Below are positions 2,358 to 60,757 of a stretch of DNA of 64,000 nucleotides, in pieces (within the stretch, counting starts at the first letter, position 1; every line of letters starts with the position of its first letter). Origin of the DNA: an uncultured Candidatus Cloacimonadota bacterium (GTDB lineage: Bacteria > Cloacimonadota > Cloacimonadia > JGIOTU-2); the NCBI GenBank assembly GCA_964398885.1, contig CAYNOU010000002.1, positions 22,762 to 86,761 of the forward strand, written 5' to 3'. The notes below the pieces were generated by a model that was not told the DNA's origin, made no database searches, and was given only the letters and a program-made list of their open reading frames with translations. The position numbers were made by a program, and so were the translations under genes.

Positions 2358-4256
2358 TCATGTATTGAATAATATTTTTACTATCTTATTAGCAATAGAT
2401 TCAGGGTCTAATCCCTGCACTTTATATACTTCTTCATTTTTTCCAGAGACTCCATATCGTGTAACACCAAATTTTACTAATTTGCATTGAATTCCATATT
2501 CAACTAATTTTTCAGAAACAATGCTTCCCAAACCGGTATTCACATTATGGTCTTCATAAGTAAAGATATAACCTGTGGAAGCTGCACTTTCTAAATCTTC
2601 TTTGCAAATATCAGAAACGCATGATAGATTCCAAACTGAGATATTAATTCTTTTACTTTTTAAGATTTCATATACTTTTAATGCTTTTTCAACCATCCCC
2701 CCGGTAGAAATTATCGTTGCATCATTTCCAGACCTAAGTCGGTCTGCTTTACCATAACAAAATTGATAATTGTTACTGTAAAAAACTTCATTATTTTCAT
2801 CTAAAATAATTTCAGTTTTGGAACGTCCAAGTGGTACGAAAAAGTTACCATTTTCAGATGCAATATATCTTATAATCTTATCAGTTTGGTTCGCATCTGC
2901 AGGAATAATTATTTTAAATCCAAAGAGATTACGCATCACACCAATATAATCAATGCATTGATGAGTTTTGCCATCCTCACCTACATCTAAACCAACATGA
3001 GTAGTAATCAATTTCAGATTGGTATGATTAATATCATTCAATCTCTGCTGGTTATAAGTCTCGTCTACACCAAAGACACCAAAATCAGAGTAAAAAGTTA
3101 TAATGCCTTCTTTAGACATAGCACCTGCAATTACTGCTGTGTTATGCTCTTGAATTCCACCTTGATAAAAGTTGTCGGGATTCTCTTTTGCAAATTTATT
3201 AGTTTTGACGGAGCCAGCAAGATCACAATCAAAAACTGCGAAATCAACTATATCTTTGTTTACTCGGACTAAATCAGCTAAAGCATTTCCATAAGCATCA
3301 CGATTTGCAACCTTTTTATCCTTATCATATATTTTTGGCTTGCCTTTTTGAACATTTTGTTTGCTTTTTTCTTCGGGATTGTTTGGGGGAATAATAAAAC
3401 TTTCCCTTAAATTTTTATATTTATCCAAATCATTTTTTACATTCAATTCATTCAAGGCTTTTTCACATTGAGACTCATTTAAAGCTTTTCCGTGGAACTG
3501 TGCATCATTTTCCATAAAAGAAACTCCTTTACCCATAACAGTATGTGCTAATATTGCAACAGGAGAATCTTTATAGGAATTCGCTCTTTCTAACGCAGAA
3601 AAAATTTGGCGAAAATCATGACCATCAATTTCAACCACTTCCCAGCCATCTGAGAGATAATTCTCCTTGATATTTTGGGGCATTACATTGCAAATTTTTC
3701 CACTTATCTGAAGTTTGTTATAATCAATTAGCACAGTGATGTTATTAAGACCGTATTTTCTTACAAATCTTCGTGCTTCTGATATTTGACCTTTTTGCTG
3801 TTCACCGTCCCCCATAGCCACAAAAACATTGTATTGAAGTCCTCGTTGCTTTCCTGCTAAAGCAAATCCGCATCCTGCAGAAAGTCCCTGTCCTAAATTG
3901 CCGGTTGCCCATTCAATACCGGGCACACTTGGCTCAACATGTCCTTCAAATATGCTTCCCGCTTTCCTGAAATAAGCAATAGCGTCATCAATATTAAAAA
4001 ATCCGAATCGTCCTAAAACAGAGTAAATTCCAGGAGCAGTATGCCCATGACTGATAACAATCCTATCACGATGTATATCTTTGAGATTATTGGGAGATAT
4101 GTTTGCAAAAGAATATAATGCAAGATATAAATCTAAAGAAGACACTGAGCCACCTGGATGGCCACTCTGAGCTAATGTAGTCATTTTCAGTATATCACCT
4201 TTACAAATGTGACTTAATTCATTTAATTCAGCTAAATCGAGTTTATTTTTTTTCAT
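2358..4256 (-). CDS. tkt: Transketolase.
   Basis: HPGGSVSSLDLYLALY, GHTAPGIYSVLG and MGDGEQQKGQISEA motifs are typical of TPP-dependent transketolase. The start is set at the internal ATG (MKKNKLDLAELN) at 4254-4256. The stop is TGA at 2358-2360. Confidence 0.85.
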   Translation of the reverse strand: MKKNKLDLAELNELSHICKGDILKMTTLAQSGHPGGSVSSLDLYLALYSFANISPNNLKDIHRDRIVISHGHTAPGIYSVLGRFGFFNIDDAIAYFRKAGSIFEGHVEPSVPGIEWATGNLGQGLSAGCGFALAGKQRGLQYNVFVAMGDGEQQKGQISEARRFVRKYGLNNITVLIDYNKLQISGKICNVMPQNIKENYLSDGWEVVEIDGHDFRQIFSALERANSYKDSPVAILAHTVMGKGVSFMENDAQFHGKALNESQCEKALNELNVKNDLDKYKNLRESFIIPPNNPEEKSKQNVQKGKPKIYDKDKKVANRDAYGNALADLVRVNKDIVDFAVFDCDLAGSVKTNKFAKENPDNFYQGGIQEHNTAVIAGAMSKEGIITFYSDFGVFGVDETYNQQRLNDINHTNLKLITTHVGLDVGEDGKTHQCIDYIGVMRNLFGFKIIIPADANQTDKIIRYIASENGNFFVPLGRSKTEIILDENNEVFYSNNYQFCYGKADRLRSGNDATIISTGGMVEKALKVYEILKSKRINISVWNLSCVSDICKEDLESAASTGYIFTYEDHNVNTGLGSIVSEKLVEYGIQCKLVKFGVTRYGVSGKNEEVYKVQGLDPESIANKIVKILFNT

Positions 4257-4378
4257 ATGAAAATCCTTTCTAACCACAAAGACACGAAGGTACAAAGATA
4301 AATGTAAAATTACGAATTACAAGTACATTGCGCTGATTCTAACACCATTTTTAATGGTGTTTTAATAAACAGTCCGCT

Positions 4379-4437
4379 CATGCCAGAGGCAGATCCTTCG
4401 GACAGCTGGCGGAGAACTTTTCGCTTGTATTGGCATG
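4379..4437. repeat. GC-rich palindromic repeat element, family A (CATGCCAGAGGCAGATCC...GGCGGAG), lying in the structured rph-tkt intergenic region.
   Basis: The 18-nt block catgccagaggcagatcc is identical to 39638-39655 and related to the perfect palindrome at 9594-9621. It is flanked by the inverted repeat catgcca/tggcatg. Confidence 0.6.
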
Positions 4438-4488: not shown

Positions 4489-5235
4489 TCATTTTGAACT
4501 AATATCCTCAAGAAGTAATTTCTTTTCTAATTCAATAATCTCTTTTATTCCCTTATCAGCTAATTTCAACATTTCCAATAATTGAGATTCTGAAAAAGTC
4601 TTATGCTCGCTTGCTCCTTGAATTTCAATATAATTGCCATCGTCATCTTTAACGATATTCATATCAACTTCAGCAATCAAATCTTCATCATAAGCTAGAT
4701 CAAGCATTATTTCACCATTAATAAGACCAACGCTAATTGCTCCCAAAAACTTATTTAATGGGAATTCACTTATCTTTTTTTCTTTTTTCATCTTTGTAAA
4801 AGCATCGTAAAGAGCGACAAAACATCCGTTTATTGCAGCAGTTCTCGTGCCTCCATCTGCTTGAATAACATCGCAATCAAGATATATAGTTCTATCTGGA
4901 AATAATGTAAGGTCAGTAACAGCACGAAGAGACCTACTAATCAATCGTTGTATTTCCTGACTTCTCCCTTTTATCCTTCCTTTGTATCTATCACGAATTA
5001 TCCTTTTTTTAGCGCTTCTGGGAAGCATATCATATTCAGCAGTTATCCAGCCTTGATTCTTGCCTTCTTCTCGTAAAAAATGTGGAAGTTTATATTCAAC
5101 AGATGCTGTACAAATAACCTTTGTATTACCCATTTCAATAAAAACAGAACCCTCTGGGTCCTGTAAATAGTTTCTTAAAATTTTGATGTTGCGAAGCTCA
5201 TCTGTCTTTCTTCCATCACTTCTCTGGTAACTCAT
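4489..5235 (-). CDS. rph: Ribonuclease PH.
   Basis: MSYQRSDGRKTDELRNIKILRNY...GNTKVICTAS...DCDVIQADGGTRTAAINGC aligns with RNase PH. The start is placed at the internal Met (M15 of the track ORF). Confidence 0.85.
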   Translation of the reverse strand: MSYQRSDGRKTDELRNIKILRNYLQDPEGSVFIEMGNTKVICTASVEYKLPHFLREEGKNQGWITAEYDMLPRSAKKRIIRDRYKGRIKGRSQEIQRLISRSLRAVTDLTLFPDRTIYLDCDVIQADGGTRTAAINGCFVALYDAFTKMKKEKKISEFPLNKFLGAISVGLINGEIMLDLAYDEDLIAEVDMNIVKDDDGNYIEIQGASEHKTFSESQLLEMLKLADKGIKEIIELEKKLLLEDISSK

Positions 5236-8122: not shown

Positions 8123-8998
8123 TTACTTCTTCCTCAAACTTAAAGTTCCACTCGGATAAACTTTCAGATAATAGCTGCATTTTAAGTCAATGTTTTTATG
8201 AAGCTTAGCCATCAAAGTGTAATGACGAATCTGTTTTTTATATTGTTTTATTTCTTCTTCAAAAAGAAACCATATATTTGCTGTACTTTCTATTGCACGA
8301 GAAATACAATCTTCAGTCAAATAGATAGATGTTTCCCATCTATCAGGTTTTACTTTACCTGGAGAAAGGAAATAACTATCAACTAATTTATCATAATATT
8401 TATTAGATTTATATATTTGACTATAAAAATATTCATCAATCCCCGTCCCCGCGGTCCCCGATCCAATCGGGGAGGGGATAGTCGGTGATTTAATTCTATA
8501 TCTCCGTTTTCCAATATTCAGATGGAGAGCCCCAAAATTTTTTCTCACATCAGCTTCATAAACTTTATGTGGAACTTCTTCATATTCAAAGCGATATTTC
8601 CCATCTGTATGAAATGGTTGATGAAGGTCTGCAACATAATGGGAAATAACTCCTAATTCAAATACAATTATTTTCAAAGGATTATCTATAATCTTCTTTA
8701 AATAACCAGCACATTTTGGGTGATAGATAAGTGAATTTTTATTGGATAAAATTTCATGAATTAATATTGTTTCTTTTTGAATTTTTTTTACTACTGAACC
8801 GTAATGATAACCTTTTTCGTTTGGTGTGCAATTATAGTAATGATTTGTTGTATCACAAAATATTTTGTCAGGACAGATGATACCAAGTTCAAAATACTCG
8901 GGATAAACATCTATTAGCAGATTAAATTGCCGAGACATCTTTCTTAATGCCAATCGGCATATTTTAATATGAGTTGATGGATTCCAGGTCCAAATCAT
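8123..8998 (-). CDS. S1/P1 nuclease or zinc-dependent phospholipase C family-like protein.
   Basis: N-terminal MIWTWNPSTH (Trp/His zinc ligands) and HYVADLHQPFH resemble the H-x-x-D-x-H-Q-P-x-H motif of P1 nuclease/PLC. It contains an in-frame GC-rich palindrome insertion at 8439-8480. Confidence 0.4.
   Translation of the reverse strand: MIWTWNPSTHIKICRLALRKMSRQFNLLIDVYPEYFELGIICPDKIFCDTTNHYYNCTPNEKGYHYGSVVKKIQKETILIHEILSNKNSLIYHPKCAGYLKKIIDNPLKIIVFELGVISHYVADLHQPFHTDGKYRFEYEEVPHKVYEADVRKNFGALHLNIGKRRYRIKSPTIPSPIGSGTAGTGIDEYFYSQIYKSNKYYDKLVDSYFLSPGKVKPDRWETSIYLTEDCISRAIESTANIWFLFEEEIKQYKKQIRHYTLMAKLHKNIDLKCSYYLKVYPSGTLSLRKK
8439..8480. repeat. Nested GC-rich palindrome (tccccgatccaatcgggga core) embedded in-frame inside CDS 8123..8998.
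   Basis: atccccgtccccgcggtccccgatccaatcggggaggggat. It is related to the TCCCCAAT..ATTGGGGA intergenic hairpins at 39844 and 63669. It encodes the Gly/Ser/Thr-rich peptide PSPIGSGTAGTGID. Confidence 0.55.
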
Positions 8999-9066: not shown

Positions 9067-9519
9067 TCAATCTTTCAATCTTTTTAATCTTTCAATTTTT
9101 TTCATTTCTCTTTGAACATCTTTTTCTCTAATTTTTTCTCGTTTTTCATACATCTTTTTCCCTTTTGCTAATCCCAATTCAATCTTTGCTAAACCCTTTT
9201 TGTTAATATATAATCTAATTGGTATTAAAGTAAACCCTCTTTCTTGAACACTTTTTTCAAGTCTACTTATTTCATGTTTATTAAGGAGTAATTTTCTTGT
9301 CCGAGTTGGGCTATAATGCTGATAACTTCCTTTATTATATAGGCTAACATGCATATTATACAACCACACTTCACTATTTCTAATTGAAGCATAACTATCT
9401 TTGAAATTAACTTTTCCTGCACGAATTGATTTTATTTCATTTCCTGTAAGAACAATTCCAACTTCTAATGTCTTTAATATTTGATAGTCTCTTTTGGCTT
9501 TGCGGTTTCTAATTTCCAT
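9067..9519 (-). CDS. smpB: SsrA-binding protein SmpB.
   Basis: MEIRNRKAKRDYQILKTLEVGIVLTGNEIKSIRAGKVNFKDSYA... The length (150 aa) and conserved N-terminus match SmpB. Confidence 0.9.
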   Translation of the reverse strand: MEIRNRKAKRDYQILKTLEVGIVLTGNEIKSIRAGKVNFKDSYASIRNSEVWLYNMHVSLYNKGSYQHYSPTRTRKLLLNKHEISRLEKSVQERGFTLIPIRLYINKKGLAKIELGLAKGKKMYEKREKIREKDVQREMKKIERLKRLKD

Positions 9520-9591
9520 TGAATTAGTTGAATTGGTTGAATTTGTTGAATTGGTTGAATCAGTTAAATTAGTTCAACCAGTTTAACCAGT
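9520..9591. repeat. Eight tandem copies of a 9-bp unit (TGAATTNGT / TYAACCAGT) immediately upstream of the smpB start codon.
   Basis: tgaattagt tgaattggt tgaatttgt tgaattggt tgaatcagt taaattagt tcaaccagt ttaaccagt. The periodicity is seen directly. Confidence 0.7.
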
Positions 9592-9593
9592 TT

Positions 9594-9621
9594 CCGCCAG
9601 AGGCGGATCCGCCTCTGGCGG
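9594..9621. repeat. Perfect 28-bp palindrome ccgccagaggcggatccgcctctggcgg (repeat family A).
   Basis: It is a perfect inverted repeat. It shares GCCAGAGGCRGATCCGCC with the elements at 4379 and 39638. Confidence 0.7.
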
Positions 9622-9729
9622 ACAACCACTAGAATCTAATTTACTTTTTATAATATTTAATCATATCTGTGTTTATCTGTCCACCCTCCGTAGCATTGCT
9701 ATTGCGGAAGACGGGTGTAAATCTGTGGC

Positions 9730-10689
9730 TTATTTTTTGTAATATTCTATAATCTCTTTTAGGATATTATCCAGAGGAACTTTTGGTTCAAATCCTATAT
9801 CTTTTTTGGCTTTTGATATGTCAGGAACACGACGCCTCATATCTTCAAATCCCTCTTCATAAGCTTCATTATAAGGGATGAGCTTTATTACGGATAAACT
9901 ATTTGTTAGCTTTTTAATCTTTTTAGCAAGGTCCATAATAGTTATCTCTTTGTCTGAGCCTATATTATAGACTTCTCCAATGCATTTCTCTTCATTCATC
10001 AATTTAACTAACGCATTTACAATATCTCCAACATAGGTAAAGCAGCGAGATTGTTTGCCATCACCATAAACTGTTATAGGATGACCAAGCAGAGCCTGTT
10101 GAACAAACCTGGGGACGACCATTCCATATTGTCCTGTTTGACGAGGCCCGATGGTATTAAATAATCTTCCAATAACAACCGGAAGCTTCTTTTCGTGCCA
10201 ATATGCTAATGCCAAAAACTCATCAATTGCCTTTGCCTCTGCATAAGACCATCTGCGAATATTTGTAGAACCGTAAATTCTATCAGTGCCTTCCTTAAAT
10301 GGTAAAGAATTGGCTTTCCCGTATACCTCTGATGTGGATGCAATAAAAATCTTCTTTTTATACTGATTAGCTAACTGAATCATTATCTCGGTTCCGGCAA
10401 CATTCGTTTCAATGGTTTGAACGGGGTTATCCACAATAAAGCGAACCCCAACCGCAGCTGCTAAATGATAAACCTGCTCGCAATTTTTTATCAAGCTGTC
10501 CATCAGTTTTTTGTTGAAAATTGTATCAATATGGATTTCCAAATTTTCATTTCTATAAATTTGTCTGATGTTTGCCAATCTGCCTGTTGAAAGATTGTCA
10601 ACAATAGTAACCTGATGACCATTCTTAAGCAAATATTCAGCTAAATATGAACCTATAAACCCTGAGCCGCCTGTGATTAAAATTTTCAT
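9730..10689 (-). CDS. NAD-dependent epimerase/dehydratase (SDR family; UDP-sugar 4-epimerase or UDP-glucuronate decarboxylase-like).
   Basis: N-terminal Rossmann fold MKILITGGSGFIGSYLAEYL and the catalytic YAEAK (YxxxK). Confidence 0.75.
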   Translation of the reverse strand: MKILITGGSGFIGSYLAEYLLKNGHQVTIVDNLSTGRLANIRQIYRNENLEIHIDTIFNKKLMDSLIKNCEQVYHLAAAVGVRFIVDNPVQTIETNVAGTEIMIQLANQYKKKIFIASTSEVYGKANSLPFKEGTDRIYGSTNIRRWSYAEAKAIDEFLALAYWHEKKLPVVIGRLFNTIGPRQTGQYGMVVPRFVQQALLGHPITVYGDGKQSRCFTYVGDIVNALVKLMNEEKCIGEVYNIGSDKEITIMDLAKKIKKLTNSLSVIKLIPYNEAYEEGFEDMRRRVPDISKAKKDIGFEPKVPLDNILKEIIEYYKK

Positions 10690-10786: not shown

Positions 10787-11809
10787 TTAAAATGTGTAAT
10801 AAATTGAGTGAATGTTATAAAAAAGATATTTATTTTTTTTCTTAAGATTCTTCAAATACCATTTACAGGTTTTTCTTATTTCATCTTCAATTGTATGTTT
10901 TTGAACATATCCCATTTCGCGAATTTTTTCAGAATAGTATTCTGTTGATGTATCAAATTTTTTCATTCTGTCACTATTTATTGGTAAATCTTTTTTTGTA
11001 ATAAAAGCTAATATATCGAAAATTTTGCCGCCGAAAACAGCAAAAAATAATGGAATTCTAATAATTGGTAAACGGAATCCATCATTTAATGCAATAATTT
11101 CCATTAATCTTTTTACTGAAATATATGGTTTATCTAATGTATTGAAAATCTGCAAACCTGGCTTCATCCTTGATATTATAAAATCAGTCATCTCCACAAG
11201 ATTTTCCAATGAAATCATTGATTTAATATGTTTTCCATTTCCAATTGTTATCCAGGGTTTACGATGCATCATATTAATTAAATTATACATATTTGCGTAA
11301 TTATATGGACCATAAATTATTGATGGTCTTAAAAAGATAACTTGCCTTTTACTATCTTGCTTTAACCATTTTTCAATAACCTTTTCTCCAGCAAGTTTAC
11401 TTGCACCATATTCATTATCAGGTTGGAGCTTACCTGTTTCATCACAGGGAACAGATTTATGACCATATACAGAAACGGTACTGTAGTAAATGACTTTATT
11501 AATTTTTTGTTCAGAAGCGTATTCCATTAAAACTTTTGTGCCATATTCATTATTACTATAGTAGCTTTCTTTTGTGATTCCCCAATCGTGTTTCGCCGCC
11601 GCACAATGAATTATCAAATTAAAATGTTTATCATTAAATTTTCGTAAATCTTTTATATTCCGTATGTCCCCAATTATTGTATGTGGATGTTTTTCTCGTA
11701 AACAAATATCACTGTTATCTATCCCCCAAATCTCATGCCCTTTTTCCTCAAGGAACCACATCAATCTGGAACCGACAAATCCGTTTGAACCTGTGATAAA
11801 TATGTTCAT
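10787..11809 (-). CDS. NAD-dependent epimerase/dehydratase (SDR family).
   Basis: MNIFITGSNGFVGSRLMWFLEEKGHEIWGIDNS is a Rossmann GxxGxxG motif, and the size is SDR-like. Confidence 0.65.
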   Translation of the reverse strand: MNIFITGSNGFVGSRLMWFLEEKGHEIWGIDNSDICLREKHPHTIIGDIRNIKDLRKFNDKHFNLIIHCAAAKHDWGITKESYYSNNEYGTKVLMEYASEQKINKVIYYSTVSVYGHKSVPCDETGKLQPDNEYGASKLAGEKVIEKWLKQDSKRQVIFLRPSIIYGPYNYANMYNLINMMHRKPWITIGNGKHIKSMISLENLVEMTDFIISRMKPGLQIFNTLDKPYISVKRLMEIIALNDGFRLPIIRIPLFFAVFGGKIFDILAFITKKDLPINSDRMKKFDTSTEYYSEKIREMGYVQKHTIEDEIRKTCKWYLKNLKKKNKYLFYNIHSIYYTF

Positions 11810-28991: not shown

Positions 28992-29020
28992 TTGCCACAG
29001 AGACACAAAGACACAGAGAA
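28992..29020. repeat. Repeat family B, TTGCCACAGAGACAC...ACAGAGA, upstream of the wzz start.
   Basis: ttgccacagagacacaaagacacagagaa. The same module recurs at 34378-34411 and 39619-39683, and in a TTGCCACGAA variant at 39376 and 59052. Confidence 0.6.
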
Positions 29021-32856: not shown

Positions 32857-33109
32857 TAAAGTTCTCCTTAGGCTTACACTTGAATGAATTCTGCAAAAAT
32901 ATGGAAAATTCCCCTAACTTGCCGTTCTCGTGATCCCCGCATCCGCGAGGAGGGAATCCAGTAGAAATACTTGTCCTCACGAAAGTGGGGAAAGGACTGT
33001 GGATTTCCAATAGATTCCCAATCAAGTTGGGAATGACAATGTTGGGAATGACATGCGTATGCCATTTTGCAGATCTCATTTACAATTTAAAACAGTGCAA
33101 AAAAACCTT

Positions 33110-34377: not shown

Positions 34378-34411
34378 TTTGCCACAGAGACACGGAGAAC
34401 ACAGAGATAAT
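34378..34411. repeat. Repeat family B copy upstream of hutI.
   Basis: tttgccacagagacacggagaacacagagataat. Confidence 0.6.
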
Positions 34412-37904: not shown

Positions 37905-38306
37905 TTAATCCTTTTCTTCAATCATTTTCATCATCGTTTTTTCTGCTTGATTAATAAATCTTTCTGCATTTTTAATTTGATGTTCTGCGTCTTCTTTACT
38001 TATTTCTACAAAATCTCTATAATCCGCATCTTCTCTAATATTTTTGGCTGTTGGCAACAATTTACTCAATTCCTTAGGAAAAAATCCTTCTTTAACAATA
38101 TACCTATTAAACAAGGAAATAACGCCTGAGTGTTTACTTGAATCCAACTCCTTCAATGCGAGTAATGCCTTTGTTGCGGAAAACATTGCATAATAACTTC
38201 TATTTGTAGACAATTTATAATGCCCATGTTGTAAACTATCTTTTGATTCAATAAGAATTTCCTTCGCTCGTTCCATCCTATATTTTGCTAATTCTATTCT
38301 ACTCAT
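37905..38306 (-). CDS. HEPN domain protein (HepT-like toxin of a MNT-HEPN module).
   Basis: 133 aa all-helical with ...NIREDADYRDF... (R-x-x-x-x-Y, HEPN-like). Overlaps the upstream MNT gene by 4 nt. Confidence 0.55.
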   Translation of the reverse strand: MSRIELAKYRMERAKEILIESKDSLQHGHYKLSTNRSYYAMFSATKALLALKELDSSKHSGVISLFNRYIVKEGFFPKELSKLLPTAKNIREDADYRDFVEISKEDAEHQIKNAERFINQAEKTMMKMIEEKD

Positions 38307-38644
38307 AAAGTTACTCCTTCTTTTTCTACTTTTTCAAGGAAAAATGACTTTAACTCCTTATTTTTCTTATATTCAAAAACACTGGATACAACAGGAGATA
38401 TTGGAATATCAGTTTCATAAAAATATTCAGCCGAAATGTCACTTATCTTATCTCTTACACCTTTTTTCCTTTTAACTAAAATAAAGATATCAATATCAGA
38501 ATCTTTGTTAAAGTCACCTCTAACTTTAGAGCCAAAAAGTTTGATAAAAACTATCTCATTCCCTAATTTTTCTCTTAACTCTTTAACAAAAGATGATACT
38601 ACCCTTGCCTCTTTTTTTGTTAAATATTTATATTTTTTTTGCAT
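38303..38644 (-). CDS. Minimal nucleotidyltransferase (MntA-like antitoxin of a MNT-HEPN module).
   Basis: LFGSKVRGDFNKDSDIDIFILV shows the GS...DxD pol-beta NTase motifs. 113 aa. Confidence 0.65.
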   Translation of the reverse strand: MQKKYKYLTKKEARVVSSFVKELREKLGNEIVFIKLFGSKVRGDFNKDSDIDIFILVKRKKGVRDKISDISAEYFYETDIPISPVVSSVFEYKKNKELKSFFLEKVEKEGVTL

Positions 38645-38669: not shown

Positions 38670-39362
38670 CTAATTATTCCTTAATATAGCTTCAGCAATT
38701 TTCAAATCAAACTTATCAGTTATCTTAATATTTTGGGGGGAACCCTGCAAAACAAATACATCTTCTCCAAGAATTTCCACTAATTCTGCATCATCATTTA
38801 CTTTGAGTTTTTTGCTTTCCGCATTTTTATGTGCTTTATAAATTAAGTCATAATAGAATGCTTGAGGTGTAAAAATTTCCCATAACTGTTTTCTATCTAA
38901 AGTGGATATGACTCTATTCTGCTTAATTCTCTTAATGGTATTTTTTGCTGGTATGCCGAGTGTAACTGCTCTTTTTTCTTCAGTCAGTTTAACAATTTCC
39001 TGAATTTCTTTAACCTTTACGAGAGGTCTAACCCCATCGTGAATTACAACATAATCAGTTGCTTCGGGGCACATTTTTAATGCATTAAATACGGATTGTT
39101 GTCTTGTTACGCCTCCATCAACAATGATAAATTTCTTTTTAGGAAGATTATATTCAGAAAAGAGTATTTTTTCAGCAAGTTTTCTATCTTCTGAACTGAT
39201 TGTGATAATTACTTTATCAAAAATTTCCGCTTTTAAAAATTTCTCTACTGTATGGACTATAATTGGTTTACCCGCAAGTGGCATAAACTGCTTTTTTATA
39301 GGTGGGTTCATCCTTTCACCTTTTCCTGCGGCTGTAATGATGGCTGATATTTTGTTTTTCAT
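38670..39362 (-). CDS. ispD: 2-C-methyl-D-erythritol 4-phosphate cytidylyltransferase.
   Basis: MKNKISAIITAAGKGERMN...KQF is the IspD N-terminal signature. 230 aa. Confidence 0.85.
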   Translation of the reverse strand: MKNKISAIITAAGKGERMNPPIKKQFMPLAGKPIIVHTVEKFLKAEIFDKVIITISSEDRKLAEKILFSEYNLPKKKFIIVDGGVTRQQSVFNALKMCPEATDYVVIHDGVRPLVKVKEIQEIVKLTEEKRAVTLGIPAKNTIKRIKQNRVISTLDRKQLWEIFTPQAFYYDLIYKAHKNAESKKLKVNDDAELVEILGEDVFVLQGSPQNIKITDKFDLKIAEAILRNN

Positions 39363-39555
39363 CTGAAAATAGCTTTTTTGCCACGAACCACACGAACTAA
39401 TCGGTCTCGGCCAGTCTTGGCTAGGCCAAGCCTAGACAGGCGCCCAGACGGACACGAACAATATTTTGTTCATAAAATTAAATCCGTTTAAAATTGTTTA
39501 CCCTGTGGAATAAAATCAAAGATTTTAATGCAAAGCATTATTCCACAGGGTGAAT

Positions 39556-39616
39556 AATTTTCATAATCCTTTGTGTCCGATTTGTTTTCGGGACATGTAT
39601 GTTTCATATGAAAATA
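39556..39616. repeat. About 60-bp direct repeat, copy 1, containing the hairpin gtccgatttgttttcgggac.
   Basis: aattttcataatcctttgtgtccgatttgttttcgggacatgtatgtttcatatgaaaat. A second copy lies at 39728-39785. Confidence 0.7.
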
Positions 39617-39618
39617 CC

Positions 39619-39683
39619 TTGCCACAGAGACACATCATGCCAGAGGCAGATCCGCCTTAGGCGGAGAGAACACAGAGATAATT
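39619..39683. repeat. Composite repeat: a family-B element (ttgccacagagacac ... agaacacagagataat) interrupted by a family-A palindrome (catgccagaggcagatccgccttaggcggag).
   Basis: Direct comparison with 28992-29020, 34378-34411, 4379-4396 and 9594-9621. Confidence 0.65.
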
Positions 39684-39727
39684 TCTATTTCTTTTTTGAT
39701 TATCCTCTGTTTCAAGCCTCTGTGTAT

Positions 39728-39785
39728 AATTTTCATACTCCTTTGTGTCCCGATTTATCGGGACATGTATGTTTCATATGAAAAT
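39728..39785. repeat. About 60-bp direct repeat, copy 2, containing the hairpin gtcccgatttatcgggac.
   Basis: aattttcatactcctttgtgtcccgatttatcgggacatgtatgtttcatatgaaaat. The hairpin also occurs at 59112-59129. Confidence 0.7.
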
Positions 39786-39975
39786 CACCTTTTTATTATT
39801 TCAATTCGGGATAAACCCGAATCTACCCACCAGTTGTCGGGTATCCCCAATTTAATTGGGGACAGGTTTATCCTGTTGCTGCAATAAAACAAGAAACTCA
39901 TCTTTAATCTTGATTCATCTTTTTAGGCCCTTGTAGTTATCACTTTTTTTCACAAATTCTTTGGTGAAAAATCTT

Positions 39976-40212
39976 TTATAGGTCACCAAAGACCTCATCT
40001 TCAGTTTCTATATTTCCGACCTCAAAATCCTTAAAACCTTTTCTAATTGAGTTCATAAGTTCCGCATTAAGATTTATATCAATTGTTTCTATTAGCTTTA
40101 TAAAATCATCAATATTGATTAATACAGACTTAATCTCATTATTTGAATAAATATATTCTACTTTAGGAATATTATACTGTCTTGTAATCTTCATAAGTTC
40201 ACTTGGTAACAT
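39976..40212 (-). CDS. Small protein, possibly a Phd/YefM-type antitoxin, orphan.
   Basis: 78 aa. ...ITRQ...EIKSVLINIDDFIKLIETIDINLNAELMNSIRKG... resembles the Phd/YefM fold pattern. No partner toxin ORF lies downstream, only the repeat hotspot. Confidence 0.3.
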   Translation of the reverse strand: MLPSELMKITRQYNIPKVEYIYSNNEIKSVLINIDDFIKLIETIDINLNAELMNSIRKGFKDFEVGNIETEDEVFGDL

Positions 40213-40270
40213 TGTTGTTCCTTTCTCTCCGATTGGAGTAATTTTTATAAAAAATCTAAAATTCTAGAAA

Positions 40271-41249: not shown

Positions 41250-41280
41250 TTGCGTTCCCAAGCTGGGCTTGGGAACGAGA
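41250..41280. repeat. Palindromic repeat family D: TTGCGTTCCCAA-[hairpin]-TTGGGAACGAGA.
   Basis: ttgcgttcccaagctgggcttgggaacgaga. The same outer arms enclose a different inner hairpin at 63657-63704. Confidence 0.65.
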
Positions 41281-41365
41281 GGGGAATTGCGGCGAAAAGA
41301 AATATAATAATAAAAAGAAATTTGAATAATTTCATATAAATTATTTATTTATATTTGATACAGGA

Positions 41366-42064
41366 TTAACCTGTATCTACCCAATTTGTTATTGGTATTA
41401 TCAAATTTCCTATATTTTCCTTATTCAATTCCATCAATTTCAAAGCATCTTTTATGCGGAAATTACCAATTCGCATTCTTCTTAATTCTACTAAGTGCCC
41501 AACTGTGCCAAGTTTTTCCGCAATATCTTCTGCTAATGCTCTGATATAGGTTCCTTTAGAAACAACTGAAGAAAATTTCAAGAACGGTTTATTATACTCT
41601 AATAATTCCAATTCTTTGATTTCAACTCTCCGTGGCTCTCTTTCAATAGTTTTTCCCTTTCGCGCAAGTTTATAGAGACGAATTCCATCTTTTTTTATCG
41701 CTGAATACATTGGAGGAATTTGTCGAATTTTGCCAATAAAATTTTGGAAAACTGATTCTATTTGTGAGATTGATAACTCTGGAATAGATTTCTCCTCAAT
41801 GACTTTGCCTGTTAAATCTGCCGTATCAGTTTTTTCGCTAAGTTTGATTTTTGCATAATATTCTTTTTCTAAACCAGTAAATTCAGAAATCTGTTTAGTC
41901 GCTTCTCTTCCCACAAAAACCAGTAGAACTCCAGTTGCAAATGGGTCAAGCGTGCCTGAATGACCAACTTTCTTTACTCCTGTAAGATAACGGATTTTTC
42001 TAACCACATCAAAAGATGTAATGCCTGCTGGCTTATCTATGTTCAGGATACCATTCATACACAA
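41366..42064 (-). CDS. truB: tRNA pseudouridine(55) synthase.
   Basis: LNIDKPAGITSFDVVRKIRYLTGVKKVGHSGTLDPFATGVLLV is the TruB catalytic motif. Confidence 0.9.
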   Translation of the reverse strand: MCMNGILNIDKPAGITSFDVVRKIRYLTGVKKVGHSGTLDPFATGVLLVFVGREATKQISEFTGLEKEYYAKIKLSEKTDTADLTGKVIEEKSIPELSISQIESVFQNFIGKIRQIPPMYSAIKKDGIRLYKLARKGKTIEREPRRVEIKELELLEYNKPFLKFSSVVSKGTYIRALAEDIAEKLGTVGHLVELRRMRIGNFRIKDALKLMELNKENIGNLIIPITNWVDTG

Positions 42065-42164
42065 AATCCTAAATCCGAATTTCTAAATCCTAAATAAATT
42101 CAAAATTCAAATTCCAAATTAAAATGTGTGCCAAAAGCCTCATTTGGCATTTGACATTTGTAAT

Positions 42165-43184
42165 TTATTTGTAATTTGATATTTGAAATTTGTCATTTTT
42201 TTTGTGGTTGATCAATTCCACAAGTTTCTCCTTTAACTTCTTTAATTCCATTTCTGTCTCAAAACCAGCTGCAAGTTTATGTCCACCGCCGCCAAATTTT
42301 TCTGCAATTTTCTGGACATTCAAATCTTTTGACCTAAGGGAAACCCGATAATGGTCAGTATTTAATTCACGAAAATAAATAACAACATCTCGTTCATTAG
42401 AAGGCTTAACCTCTTTTGAGAAACCGTCTGTCAATTCCATATCTGCATTACAACCTTTTAGCATCTTCTGGGTCGTAATGTAAAAAGCAATGCTTACATT
42501 TCGTCCTATTTTGTGGAATTCCAATGTTGACAAAGTCTTACCCAGGAGTTTCAACTCATCTGTGCTTCTATTTTCAAAGATATTAAGAGAGCAGAGATTA
42601 TTATCTGCACCTATGGCAAGCAGTTCGCTCGCTACTGTAAATGTCTGGGGAGACACATTCTTATTTGCAAAATTATTGGTATCATAAATTAAGCCTGTAT
42701 AAAGACAATTAGCAAATTTTCTTTTCCAATAGGATGAAAAACCTTGAATTTCTTCTTGTAAGAGCAAATAGATAATCTCGCATACTGAAGAAGCATTTGT
42801 ATCAATGTAAAAAATGGTATTTGGTATCTCCTCTAATTTGTAATGATGGTCTATACATATCAACTGCTTACAGTTTTCAAATAAATTTTGAATTTTTTGT
42901 CCTGCTCTCTTTCTTTCATTATAGTCAAGCATAAAGACTATTTGATTGGTAGCGTTGGAGATTTGGGTTTCAACTTTATCTGATAAACCGAGAAAGTCAT
43001 ATTTATTTGAAGGAAGGTCTTGATTTATGATTCTAATACTTTTGCCATGTCCTTTTAGGAATAGATAAATGGCAAATTGTGCACCAATAGCGTCACCATC
43101 TGGATTCTCATGTGTTGTTATAACAAAATTTTGATTAGTATAAATAAGGTTTTTTAATTCAATCTTAAATTCATCTAATGTCAT
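42165..43184 (-). CDS. nrnA: Bifunctional oligoribonuclease / pAp phosphatase NrnA (DHH-DHHA1).
   Basis: DGDAIGA (DHH motif I) and GGGHKLAAGF (DHHA1). Confidence 0.8.
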   Translation of the reverse strand: MTLDEFKIELKNLIYTNQNFVITTHENPDGDAIGAQFAIYLFLKGHGKSIRIINQDLPSNKYDFLGLSDKVETQISNATNQIVFMLDYNERKRAGQKIQNLFENCKQLICIDHHYKLEEIPNTIFYIDTNASSVCEIIYLLLQEEIQGFSSYWKRKFANCLYTGLIYDTNNFANKNVSPQTFTVASELLAIGADNNLCSLNIFENRSTDELKLLGKTLSTLEFHKIGRNVSIAFYITTQKMLKGCNADMELTDGFSKEVKPSNERDVVIYFRELNTDHYRVSLRSKDLNVQKIAEKFGGGGHKLAAGFETEMELKKLKEKLVELINHKKNDKFQISNYK

Positions 43185-43527: not shown

Positions 43528-43808
43528 TAATAATAATCCTCAATTTTAGTTATCTCAACATCCATATAAGTATCTTCAATAAAATGAATAACATCGGATA
43601 ATTTTCTTTCAATATATAACATTTCATTAGCAATTATAGAAATACCGATTGTAGCATTTTTCCATTTCTCATTATTATTAATCTCAGCAATTGAAACATT
43701 ATATTTATTATGGATTCTCTGTGTCATGCTTTTTACAATACTTCTTTTATTTTTTAAAGATTTTGATAAGGGCAGGTAAAGTTCAAGGATTATACTTTTT
43801 ACAGGCAT
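43527..43808 (-). CDS. DUF503 (YlxP-like) protein.
   Basis: Small protein between infB and rbfA, as in the Bacillus ylxP position. The start is placed at the internal Met (MPVKSIILELY). Confidence 0.55.
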   Translation of the reverse strand: MPVKSIILELYLPLSKSLKNKRSIVKSMTQRIHNKYNVSIAEINNNEKWKNATIGISIIANEMLYIERKLSDVIHFIEDTYMDVEITKIEDYY

Positions 43809-43973
43809 TAATGACTTTGTTGATTTAATGATTTGGAGATTTGGTGATTTTAATTTTAAGCTCCATAAATCGCCATACAAGCTCAAACTCCACTTGGAGG
43901 ATACATACAAGACTTCCGAAATTCAGTAAATTCTTGAAAAAATTGAATTAATCAACAGACTCATTAATTTAGG

Positions 43974-60662: not shown

Positions 60663-60757
60663 AGCCGAGAGGGCAGGAATCGAACCTGCCACAGACGGTT
60701 TTATCCGCCCACTACTGATTTTGAAGACCAGTTGGAACACCAGTTCCATCCTCTCAA
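60663..60757 (-). tRNA. selC: tRNA-Sec (selC), anticodon UCA.
   Basis: Minus-strand fold: 8-bp acceptor (TTGAGAGG/CCTCTCGG), 6-bp D-stem TGGAAC/GTTCCA with the 4-nt loop TGGT, 6-bp anticodon stem with loop CTTCAAA (UCA at 34-36), a long variable arm, and a 5-bp T-stem GCAGG/CCTGC with loop TTCGATT. About 94-95 nt. CCA is not encoded. Confidence 0.75.

Follow-up and report, generated by a model that had tools for sequence, protein, structure and literature searches.

A 30-nt double hairpin from a Cloacimonadota genome, probably a miniature mobile DNA element, with copies in many bacterial phyla

The 64,000-nt stretch of DNA analysed here (the window; contig CAYNOU010000002.1) comes from an uncultured Candidatus Cloacimonadota bacterium and has a G+C content of 31.8%. 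Among its few GC-rich islands are three copies of one short palindromic repeat, here called family A. What are these copies, and how did they reach the spacers in which they lie? Family A is interpreted as a miniature, non-autonomous mobile DNA element in the form of a 30-nt double hairpin, a reading to which we give a probability of about 0.7. Exact gain or loss of 30 nt is seen at orthologous sites, with neither duplication nor loss of host bases.

The unit consists of TCCGCC-NNN-GGCGGA joined directly to a second TCCGCC-NNN-GGCGGA, giving 30 nt in which each hairpin has a 6-bp stem and a 3-nt loop; the inner arms of both hairpins together form GGCGGATCCGCC. A position matrix of 113 copies, oriented with the purine loop first, gives the consensus tt-TCCGCC-AGA-GGCGGA-TCCGCC-TTy-GGCGGA-aaa. 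The stems are near-invariant and the second loop is pyrimidine-rich (TTC, TTT, TCT, TTG, TAY). The three bases beyond each end are skewed towards t-T-y and r-A-a, with T at position -2 from the stem in 97 of the 113 copies and A at +2 in 82. In some copies the second hairpin is enlarged to 12-30 nt, its stem being retained. All six reading frames of the element are free of stop codons.

Is this one palindrome or two hairpins? Covariation was scored in loci from other genomes by taking each perfect unit as an anchor and examining the adjoining 15 nt, with 15-mers 60 nt away as controls. A perfect 6-bp/3-nt hairpin is present in 183 of 455 neighbouring 15-mers, compared to 1 of 449 controls. Eleven neighbour hairpins have non-canonical stems in which both arms are altered (TCTGCC/GGCAGA, TGCGCC/GGCGCA, TCAGCC/GGCTGA, CCAGCC/GGCTGG, CCCGCC/GGCGGG), and such changes hit one hairpin independently of its partner. 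A single long hairpin is the thermodynamic optimum for the perfect palindrome, yet compensation within each half and expansions limited to the second loop argue for two units; on the pattern of substitutions, a pair of independent hairpins is thus a better description than one 15-bp stem.

The three copies in the window represent different states of this unit:

9593-9622, no strand assigned: intact, fully symmetric copy, TCCGCC-AGA-GGCGGA then TCCGCC-TCT-GGCGGA
39635-39665, plus strand: copy of a 31-nt subfamily, TC(A)TGCC-AGA-GGCAGA then TCCGCC-TTA-GGCGGA
4373-4413, plus strand: degenerate, rearranged copy with TCCGC, TCATGCC-AGA-GGCAGA, TCC-TTC-GGA and CAGCTGGCGGA in this order

The 15-mer GCCAGAGGCRGATCC matches at 4382-4396 (+), 9596-9610 (+), overlapping 9605-9619 (-), and 39639-39653 (+). 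These are four matches against 0.01 expected, a count reached in none of 100 dinucleotide-preserving shuffles, and they bear out a preliminary description of this DNA that had reported related palindromes at three distant intergenic sites. The 18-mer CATGCCAGAGGCAGATCC that it found shared by two sites is exact in both and correctly placed at 4379-4396; the second site is 39636-39653 and not 39638-39655, a shift of 2 nt. Its 28-bp palindrome (9594-9621) is confirmed as the core of a perfect 30-bp palindrome, tccgccagaggcggatccgcctctggcgga (9593-9622), with a central GGATCC. Its picture of conserved arms around variable centres holds for a dispersed family with conserved stems and variable loops, except that the unit is a pair of mini-hairpins instead of one palindrome. 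Separated by 74 nt from the downstream smpB start (9519), the intact copy folds with -28.8 kcal/mol (z = -7.3). In the first stem of the 31-nt copy a C-G pair is replaced by T-A in a compensated change and one A bulges out; the minimum-energy fold of this copy is two adjacent hairpins. In the degenerate copy an outer TCCGC/GCGGA stem surrounds the remainder. The spacer that holds it, between rph and tkt, had been called highly structured, and its fold does beat 200 of 200 shuffles on both strands (z = -2.85 and -3.18); the copy itself is an atypical, degenerate member whose fold is the poorest of the three and does not outdo shuffled sequence (z about -1).

Evidence that the unit comes and goes as a block is found in the spacer between an epimerase gene and smpB. 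A close relative known from three independent assemblies (L208-L210, flanks 93-96% identical) does not have the element in this spacer: in the alignment with the window, the gap spans the 30-nt element and the 9-nt periodic array is present. Three JGI samples and three Logan assemblies carry the element at this site, which is empty in three other assemblies; three Logan contigs begin 2 nt inside the 9593-9622 palindrome. Removal of 9593-9622 in silico joins GTT to CAACCA, yielding the 9-mer GTTCAACCA and restoring the phase of the array. Similarly, removal of 39635-39665 joins ACACA to GAG, yielding ACACAGAG, and again the array phase is restored. The interrupted arrays are as follows:

9519-9592, no strand assigned: smpB leader array of nine GTTGAATTG-like 9-nt units, one of them split by the element and resuming at 9623-9628
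39622-39634, no strand assigned: left part of a CACAGAG-type 8-nt array, a flank arrangement matched in contigs L259 and L310
39666-39679, no strand assigned: right part of the CACAGAG-type array, GAGAACACAGAGAT

A second filled/empty pair lies within a gene. In a TsaD from Komeilibacteria (L141, P0001), the element encodes SARGGSASGG between ...ELILM and KNxGQY..., and 14 of the 14 closest homologues (61-83% identical in alignment) are without exactly those ten residues. In DNA, the filled site reads ATG, the 30 nt and AAAAAC, and the empty site of the nearest homologue (L338) reads ATG followed directly by AAAAAC, without duplication or deletion. Target-site duplication is absent from both comparisons and is ruled out by these two pairs.

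The other two window copies also lie in DNA that differs between strains. The 39635-39665 copy falls within about 915 nt (39363-40270) missing from GCA_034722995.1, a contig of a metagenome-assembled genome (MAG) that is 88-95% identical to the window and in which ribF and ispD overlap. A cluster-mate of the window's IspD also bears a Cloacimonadota name. The rph-tkt spacer cannot be aligned to L208. In that relative, a TCCGCCAG...CTGGCGGA element at 11031-11085 occupies the loop of a conserved rph-proximal hairpin (GTGCTGAAA...TTTCAGCAT) and encloses two other hairpins, and the 17-mer AGCTGGCGGAGAACTTT is common to the window and L208 in opposite orientation relative to the genes. The L208 insert represents this hot spot in another insertion state. 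All three window copies therefore occupy strain-variable segments.

What happens when the element enters a gene? Copies with at least 60 stop-free codons on each side were counted as genic, and 35 of about 118 distinct elements (about a third) lie in such long open reading frames (ORFs), where the flanking frames run on through the element. In 33 of these 35, the frame is TCC GCC ..., encoding Ser-Ala-x-Gly-Gly-Ser-Ala-x-Gly-Gly (p = 5e-14 against one in three). Genic copies are also biased in orientation (23 vs 10); one orientation gives Lys/Glu/Gln at the variable position and the other gives Arg plus Phe/Leu. The frame bias, with which the orientation bias agrees, argues that the insert is translated and that selection retains only the innocuous, linker-like frame. 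Hosts include RpoB, the C-terminal beta-propeller of GyrA, a class I aminoacyl-tRNA synthetase and TsaD. A DnaJ carries two copies within its G/F region, and several C-terminal sorting domains of type IX secretion (T9SS) have the insert at the same loop (...YEVEF-SARGGSAFGG-N..SGVYFY...). Among the matches listed, no long-ORF copy belongs to the 31-nt subfamily, whose insertion would cause a frame shift.

TsaD appears to receive other inserts as well. Homologues P0002, P0005, P0007, P0009, P0011 and P0012 have short, GC-rich-looking in-frame inserts at variable loops (PPPLLRRGSGGG, GGARGG, GARHASPLP / RHASHLP), which suggest further palindromic insert families in genes of the candidate phyla radiation (CPR).

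How widely is family A distributed? The preliminary description had tied the idea of a family to further copies beyond the window, and these exist in number. One genome per GTDB species (596 Gb) was scanned with the pattern GCCAGAGGCRGATCC-N(4-30)-GGCGGA; used alone as a collection-wide query, GCCAGAGGCRGATCC is saturated by chance matches. The scan found at least 120 loci, compared to about 14 expected by chance on a rough estimate, and nearly all matches listed show the canonical 27-nt spacing. The 80 titled loci among the matches listed bear at least 15 phylum-level labels, mostly of uncultivated bacteria. They include many Patescibacteria/CPR lineages, Omnitrophota, Planctomycetota, Ignavibacteria, KSB1 (with a single-cell genome), Zixibacteria, Elusimicrobia, Kiritimatiellia/Verrucomicrobiota, Lentisphaerae, Margulisbacteria, Bacteroidota, a Desulfotomaculaceae MAG and several MAGs labelled Gammaproteobacteria. 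Chance or a coding look-alike may account for a few high-GC matches (L109, L115 and L117). The exact 19-mer TCATGCCAGAGGCAGATCC of the 31-nt subfamily occurs in at least 119 contigs of JGI/ENA metagenomes, those listed including contigs from the window's own sampling project, and near-identical CACAGAG-flanked 31-nt copies are found in L259 and L310. Some carrier loci have 2-3 copies per 8 kb.

Phages and plasmids provide few matches. A pattern of 24 specified bases matches two IMG/VR viral contigs, and the consensus (36-nt megablast query) has no match in PLSDB plasmids, INPHARED phages or 5,426 E. coli genomes. A phage- or plasmid-borne origin was rejected on the counts for IMG/VR, INPHARED and PLSDB. 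In CPR-like metagenome contigs, the 31-nt subfamily is embedded in a conserved structured repeat of about 190 nt, TTGCCGCCAAAGAAAAACTTG - TCATGCC double hairpin - AAATTGTCAGCGGTGCGGCTCCGCCGC ... GAAATGCGTTCGGACTAATTCAAGAATAC (L283 with two copies, L271, L321, L326, L223, L226, L238, L264 and L312). Searches of the CPR loci with this composite repeat against Rfam returned tRNAs only.

The surroundings of the copies give some indication of where the element enters. Intergenic copies are often placed within short-period arrays or inside the loops of hairpins. Period-7 arrays are about 13 times enriched near elements, and direct identity of at least 6/7 between the two 7-nt flanks is seen in about 10% of copies vs 0.3-0.5% of controls, at length 7 only. 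These flank repeats are better explained by insertion into heptamer arrays; a fixed target duplication does not fit because the coding insertions are exactly 30 nt. Extended inverted flanks are not enriched at a fixed register. When the register is left free, a run of at least 6 is found in 14.7% of copies vs 2.9% of controls, a modest excess that comes mainly from the TCATGCC subfamily, some of whose copies occupy the apex of longer inverted repeats. The context signals suggest a preference for slippage-prone or hairpin-forming DNA. The preference for T-rich/A-rich junctions (TTy before the element) is statistical only.

Imperfect tandem arrays of 7-9 nt fill many spacers of the window (9519-9592, 4276-4302, 28996-29019, 34383-34407, 42064-42202 and 43808-43850) and resemble the heptamer arrays of cyanobacterial short tandemly repeated repetitive (STRR) sequences. 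Some of these short-period arrays reach start codons, and the smpB leader array is without an obvious Shine-Dalgarno sequence. The same leader array exists in L208 without the element, and similar arrays flank the element in other phyla.

How could so small a unit move? Insertion would depend on the hairpins, probably proceed via single-strand DNA and be catalysed in trans by an enzyme. Template switching at replication forks offers a possible alternative route, and horizontal transfer among co-resident lineages would add to the spread. The window copies (intact, 31-nt variant and decayed) would then be passengers in strain-variable spacers and at most add stable hairpins to read-through transcripts; no evidence was seen of a benefit to the host from the copies in the window.

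Several observations weigh against a mobile element. No mobilising gene was identified, although no systematic search for one was made. It is difficult to see how a purely selfish 30-mer would stay nearly identical across phyla if no conserved recogniser acted on it. Polarity at the smpB spacer, insertion or deletion, is inferred from parsimony, and the stem covariation could have arisen either through selection on folding or through a palindrome-generating mode of copying. The 7-nt flank repeats in about 10% of copies are unexplained by a strictly duplication-free mechanism unless the element inserts into heptamer arrays. Finally, about 20 kb of extra flank from the same genome holds no further copies, which leaves three in about 84 kb, or about one per 28 kb, and a high copy number in this genome is an extrapolation.

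The placement of the window copies raises the question of whether they act at the RNA level. All three are intergenic, flanked by co-directional minus-strand genes and 74-274 nt upstream of the next start. The genes that bound each spacer are the following:

4489-5235, minus strand: RNase PH (rph), and 2358-4256, minus strand: transketolase (tkt), around the 4373-4413 copy
9730-10689, minus strand: NAD-epimerase, and 9067-9519, minus strand: SmpB, around the 9593-9622 copy
39976-40212, minus strand: 78-aa ORF, and 38670-39362, minus strand: IspD, around the 39635-39665 copy

These positions, the very stable hairpins and the unusually structured rph-tkt spacer would suit an RNA hairpin with a function for the host, which might stabilise mRNA, serve in processing or act as a non-canonical terminator between co-transcribed genes; such roles have been proposed for some repetitive extragenic palindromic (REP) sequences and BIMEs. 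We nevertheless consider a host function improbable for family A. The copies have no U-tract, and an intrinsic terminator was rejected as no terminator call overlaps them and A-rich sequence follows the hairpins on both strands; nor does any promoter call overlap a copy. The orientation check against neighbouring genes, proposed in the preliminary description, was run on the intergenic copies and gave no bias (11 same-same vs 14 opposite-opposite). In addition, L208-L210 do without the element in the same spacer, and the third of copies that lie in ORFs are apparently translated, to judge from the frame bias. Rfam offers no match to the element: at the gathering score the whole window contains tRNA-Sec only, and at E values up to 10 the surroundings of each copy show chance-level hairpin matches only. 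Equally improbable, in our estimate, is a recognition signal at the DNA level (an uptake signal, or the site of a DNA-binding or recombination protein) spread by uptake and recombination rather than transposition. Such a signal would account for a sequence that is near-identical across phyla, works in either orientation, is tolerated, like DNA uptake sequences, within coding regions in one preferred frame, and is rare in IMG/VR viral contigs and unmatched among INPHARED phages and PLSDB plasmids; many CPR depend on DNA uptake. However, known uptake signals are 9-12 nt long, species-specific and present about once per kb, a density far from that in this genome, and arm-by-arm covariation of the stems suits a hairpin better than a fixed duplex site. 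We know of no cognate protein.

A process without any dedicated enzyme, in which template switching, quasi-palindrome correction or gene conversion acts between hairpin-forming sites, is unlikely as well, if a little less so. It would yield exact insertions without duplication and variant stems that remain perfectly complementary, and it fits flanks that tend to lengthen the palindrome (tTy...rAa) and copies at the apex of longer inverted repeats. It leaves unexplained, however, why the same 30-mer is present in so many phyla and how an identical block could arise repeatedly de novo in unrelated genes. An artefact or chance origin, whether as an adaptor, an assembly chimera or an ordinary coding motif for Gly/Ser linkers, is very nearly negligible. 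A perfect palindrome with a BamHI site at which contigs break might raise that suspicion, but at least six independent assemblies have the smpB site filled and three others have it empty, and the family shows variable loops, covarying stems and expansions. Moreover, the nucleotide identity extends to synonymous positions and non-coding DNA, and chance predicts far fewer matches in the window than are found.

The features of family A that surprise are its identity across phyla, its size of 30 nt and its recurrent in-frame insertion into essential genes. A bolder proposal, which we hold tentatively and at rather less than even odds, is that it is a family so far undescribed, active to this day and close to the smallest mobile DNA known in bacteria. 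It would be moved without target duplication by an enzyme that recognises hairpins in single-strand DNA or by an uptake/recombination pathway, would pass between CPR/Patescibacteria and the phyla that share their anoxic sediments and groundwater, and would time and again fit core proteins such as RpoB, GyrA, DnaJ and TsaD with 10-residue linkers. Literature searches with the exact sequence and with keywords found only cloning primers or unrelated papers; these searches were limited in scope and an earlier description is possible. If family A is read correctly here, a single 30-nt sequence records the movement of DNA between bacterial phyla for which links are otherwise difficult to find, and serves as a natural tracer of horizontal exchange in groundwater and sediment communities, including CPR. 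Core enzymes that repeatedly take the same 10-residue insert are relevant to protein annotation, alignment and phylogeny of MAGs, and the element breaks short-read assemblies and yields spurious small ORFs. The movement of palindromes that seem to have no enzyme, such as mitochondrial GC clusters and double-hairpin elements, would become testable in bacteria, with thousands of natural insertion sites.

Other segments of the window show signs of insertion or unusual composition. Next to the intact copy, about 90 nt (about 9641-9729) are missing from L208-L210. This segment includes a GC-rich hairpin at 9681-9717 (CACCCGTCTTCCGC...GCGGAAGACGGGTG, plus strand), has at its borders CACAGAT words and a second, diverged version of the final 25-30 nt of the epimerase gene, and looks like a second, unrelated insertion. 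Within the Zn_dep_PLPC ORF at 8123-8998, a GC-rich palindromic island at 8433-8479 (ATCCCCTCCCCGAT TGG ATCGGGGACCGCGGGGACGGGGAT on the coding strand) encodes IPSPIGSGTAGTG. The L208 scaffold has a run of N exactly at this island, which is perhaps a further palindromic insert that keeps the frame and belongs to some other family. The variable region at 39363-40270 contains, besides the 78-aa ORF, a GC-rich island (39402-39460) within a CACGAAC array and a pair of direct repeats some 60 nt long (about 39558-39618 and 39730-39789), both of which include a hairpin and a TTTCATATGAAAAT motif that recurs at the tkt start (4247-4270). Downstream of ispD, small overlapping ORFs at 37905-38306 and 38303-38644 lie within about 790 nt missing from the relative L212 and, as read from their sequences, may be a toxin-antitoxin pair of HEPN-like and nucleotidyltransferase-like proteins. 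Further small GC-rich palindromic islands occur at 41261-41294 (AGCTGGGCTTGGGAAC..., between ribF and truB) and 32921-32961 (GATCCCCGCATCCGCGAGGAGGGAATC). The tRNA-Sec gene lies at 60664-60757 with anticodon TCA, and a SelA homologue is close by in the same-strain contig L218.

Where does family A stand among known palindromic and mobile repeats? Rickettsia palindromic elements (RPEs) insert in-frame into unrelated, often essential genes and into intergenic DNA, and are translated as an added peptide (PMC10969869). Family A likewise is a palindromic repeat found in-frame in coding genes, including core genes. RPEs, however, are about 100-150 bp long, confined to Rickettsia and add a structured segment, whereas family A measures 30 nt, bears at least 15 phylum-level labels and adds a 10-residue Gly/Ser/Ala linker. 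MITEs, or miniature inverted-repeat transposable elements, measure 50-500 bp, with terminal inverted repeats and target-site duplications (PMC10969869). Like the MITEs Correia, ERIC, Nezha and Chunjie, family A is non-autonomous, dispersed and hairpin-forming, and sometimes sits inside unbroken operons; unlike them, it is 30-31 nt long and duplication-free, with no parent insertion sequence identified.

The preliminary description had called the family REP-like. The term is apt for short dispersed palindromes, and like REP, BIME and REPIN sequences the element is a short GC-rich palindrome of intergenic spacers, often paired and within the size range of about 20-40 nt. REPs, however, are lineage-specific, essentially extragenic, marked by a conserved GTAG-type tetranucleotide and tied to the RAYT transposase. 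In family A the flanks are tTy...rAa without any GTAG-type tetranucleotide in the 113-copy matrix, the sequence crosses phyla, and about a third of copies, the 35 in long ORFs, are intragenic and in-frame, although the window copies are intergenic in three of three cases. REPs run to hundreds of copies per genome, a number against which the three copies in about 84 kb of this genome and the 2-3 per 8 kb at some carrier loci can be set. Membership in these three groups is rejected for MITEs because of size and the lack of duplication, for REPs because of the missing GTAG, the cross-phylum range and the intragenic copies, and for RPEs because of size and host range.

Similarities are also seen with IS200/IS605-derived PATEs and other substrates of HUH/Y1 enzymes, which share with family A the absence of target-site duplication, the hairpins and a short preferred adjoining sequence, here TTy. 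Those substrates have distinct left and right ends of tens of nt each and exceed 100 nt in total, in contrast to 30 nt here. No TnpA or TnpB gene was seen next to a copy, although no search was aimed at one. In architecture, family A most closely resembles the GC clusters of yeast mitochondria and the double-hairpin elements of Allomyces and other fungal or protist mitochondrial DNAs: GC-rich mini-palindromes in an AT-rich genome, two adjacent hairpins, presence/absence polymorphism, and both coding and intergenic sites. The mitochondrial elements lie in intergenic, rRNA-variable and coding regions, and several GC-cluster classes show short target duplications; we know of no transposase for them or for family A. 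They are organellar and lineage-restricted, whereas family A is bacterial and shows no target duplication, so the likeness is one of analogy and not of membership. Double-hairpin elements are cited in two earlier papers (PMC5910586; PMC7218506). Family A is thus best read as REP/RPE-like in kind and a member of neither group, with its nearest architectural counterparts among the double hairpins of mitochondria.

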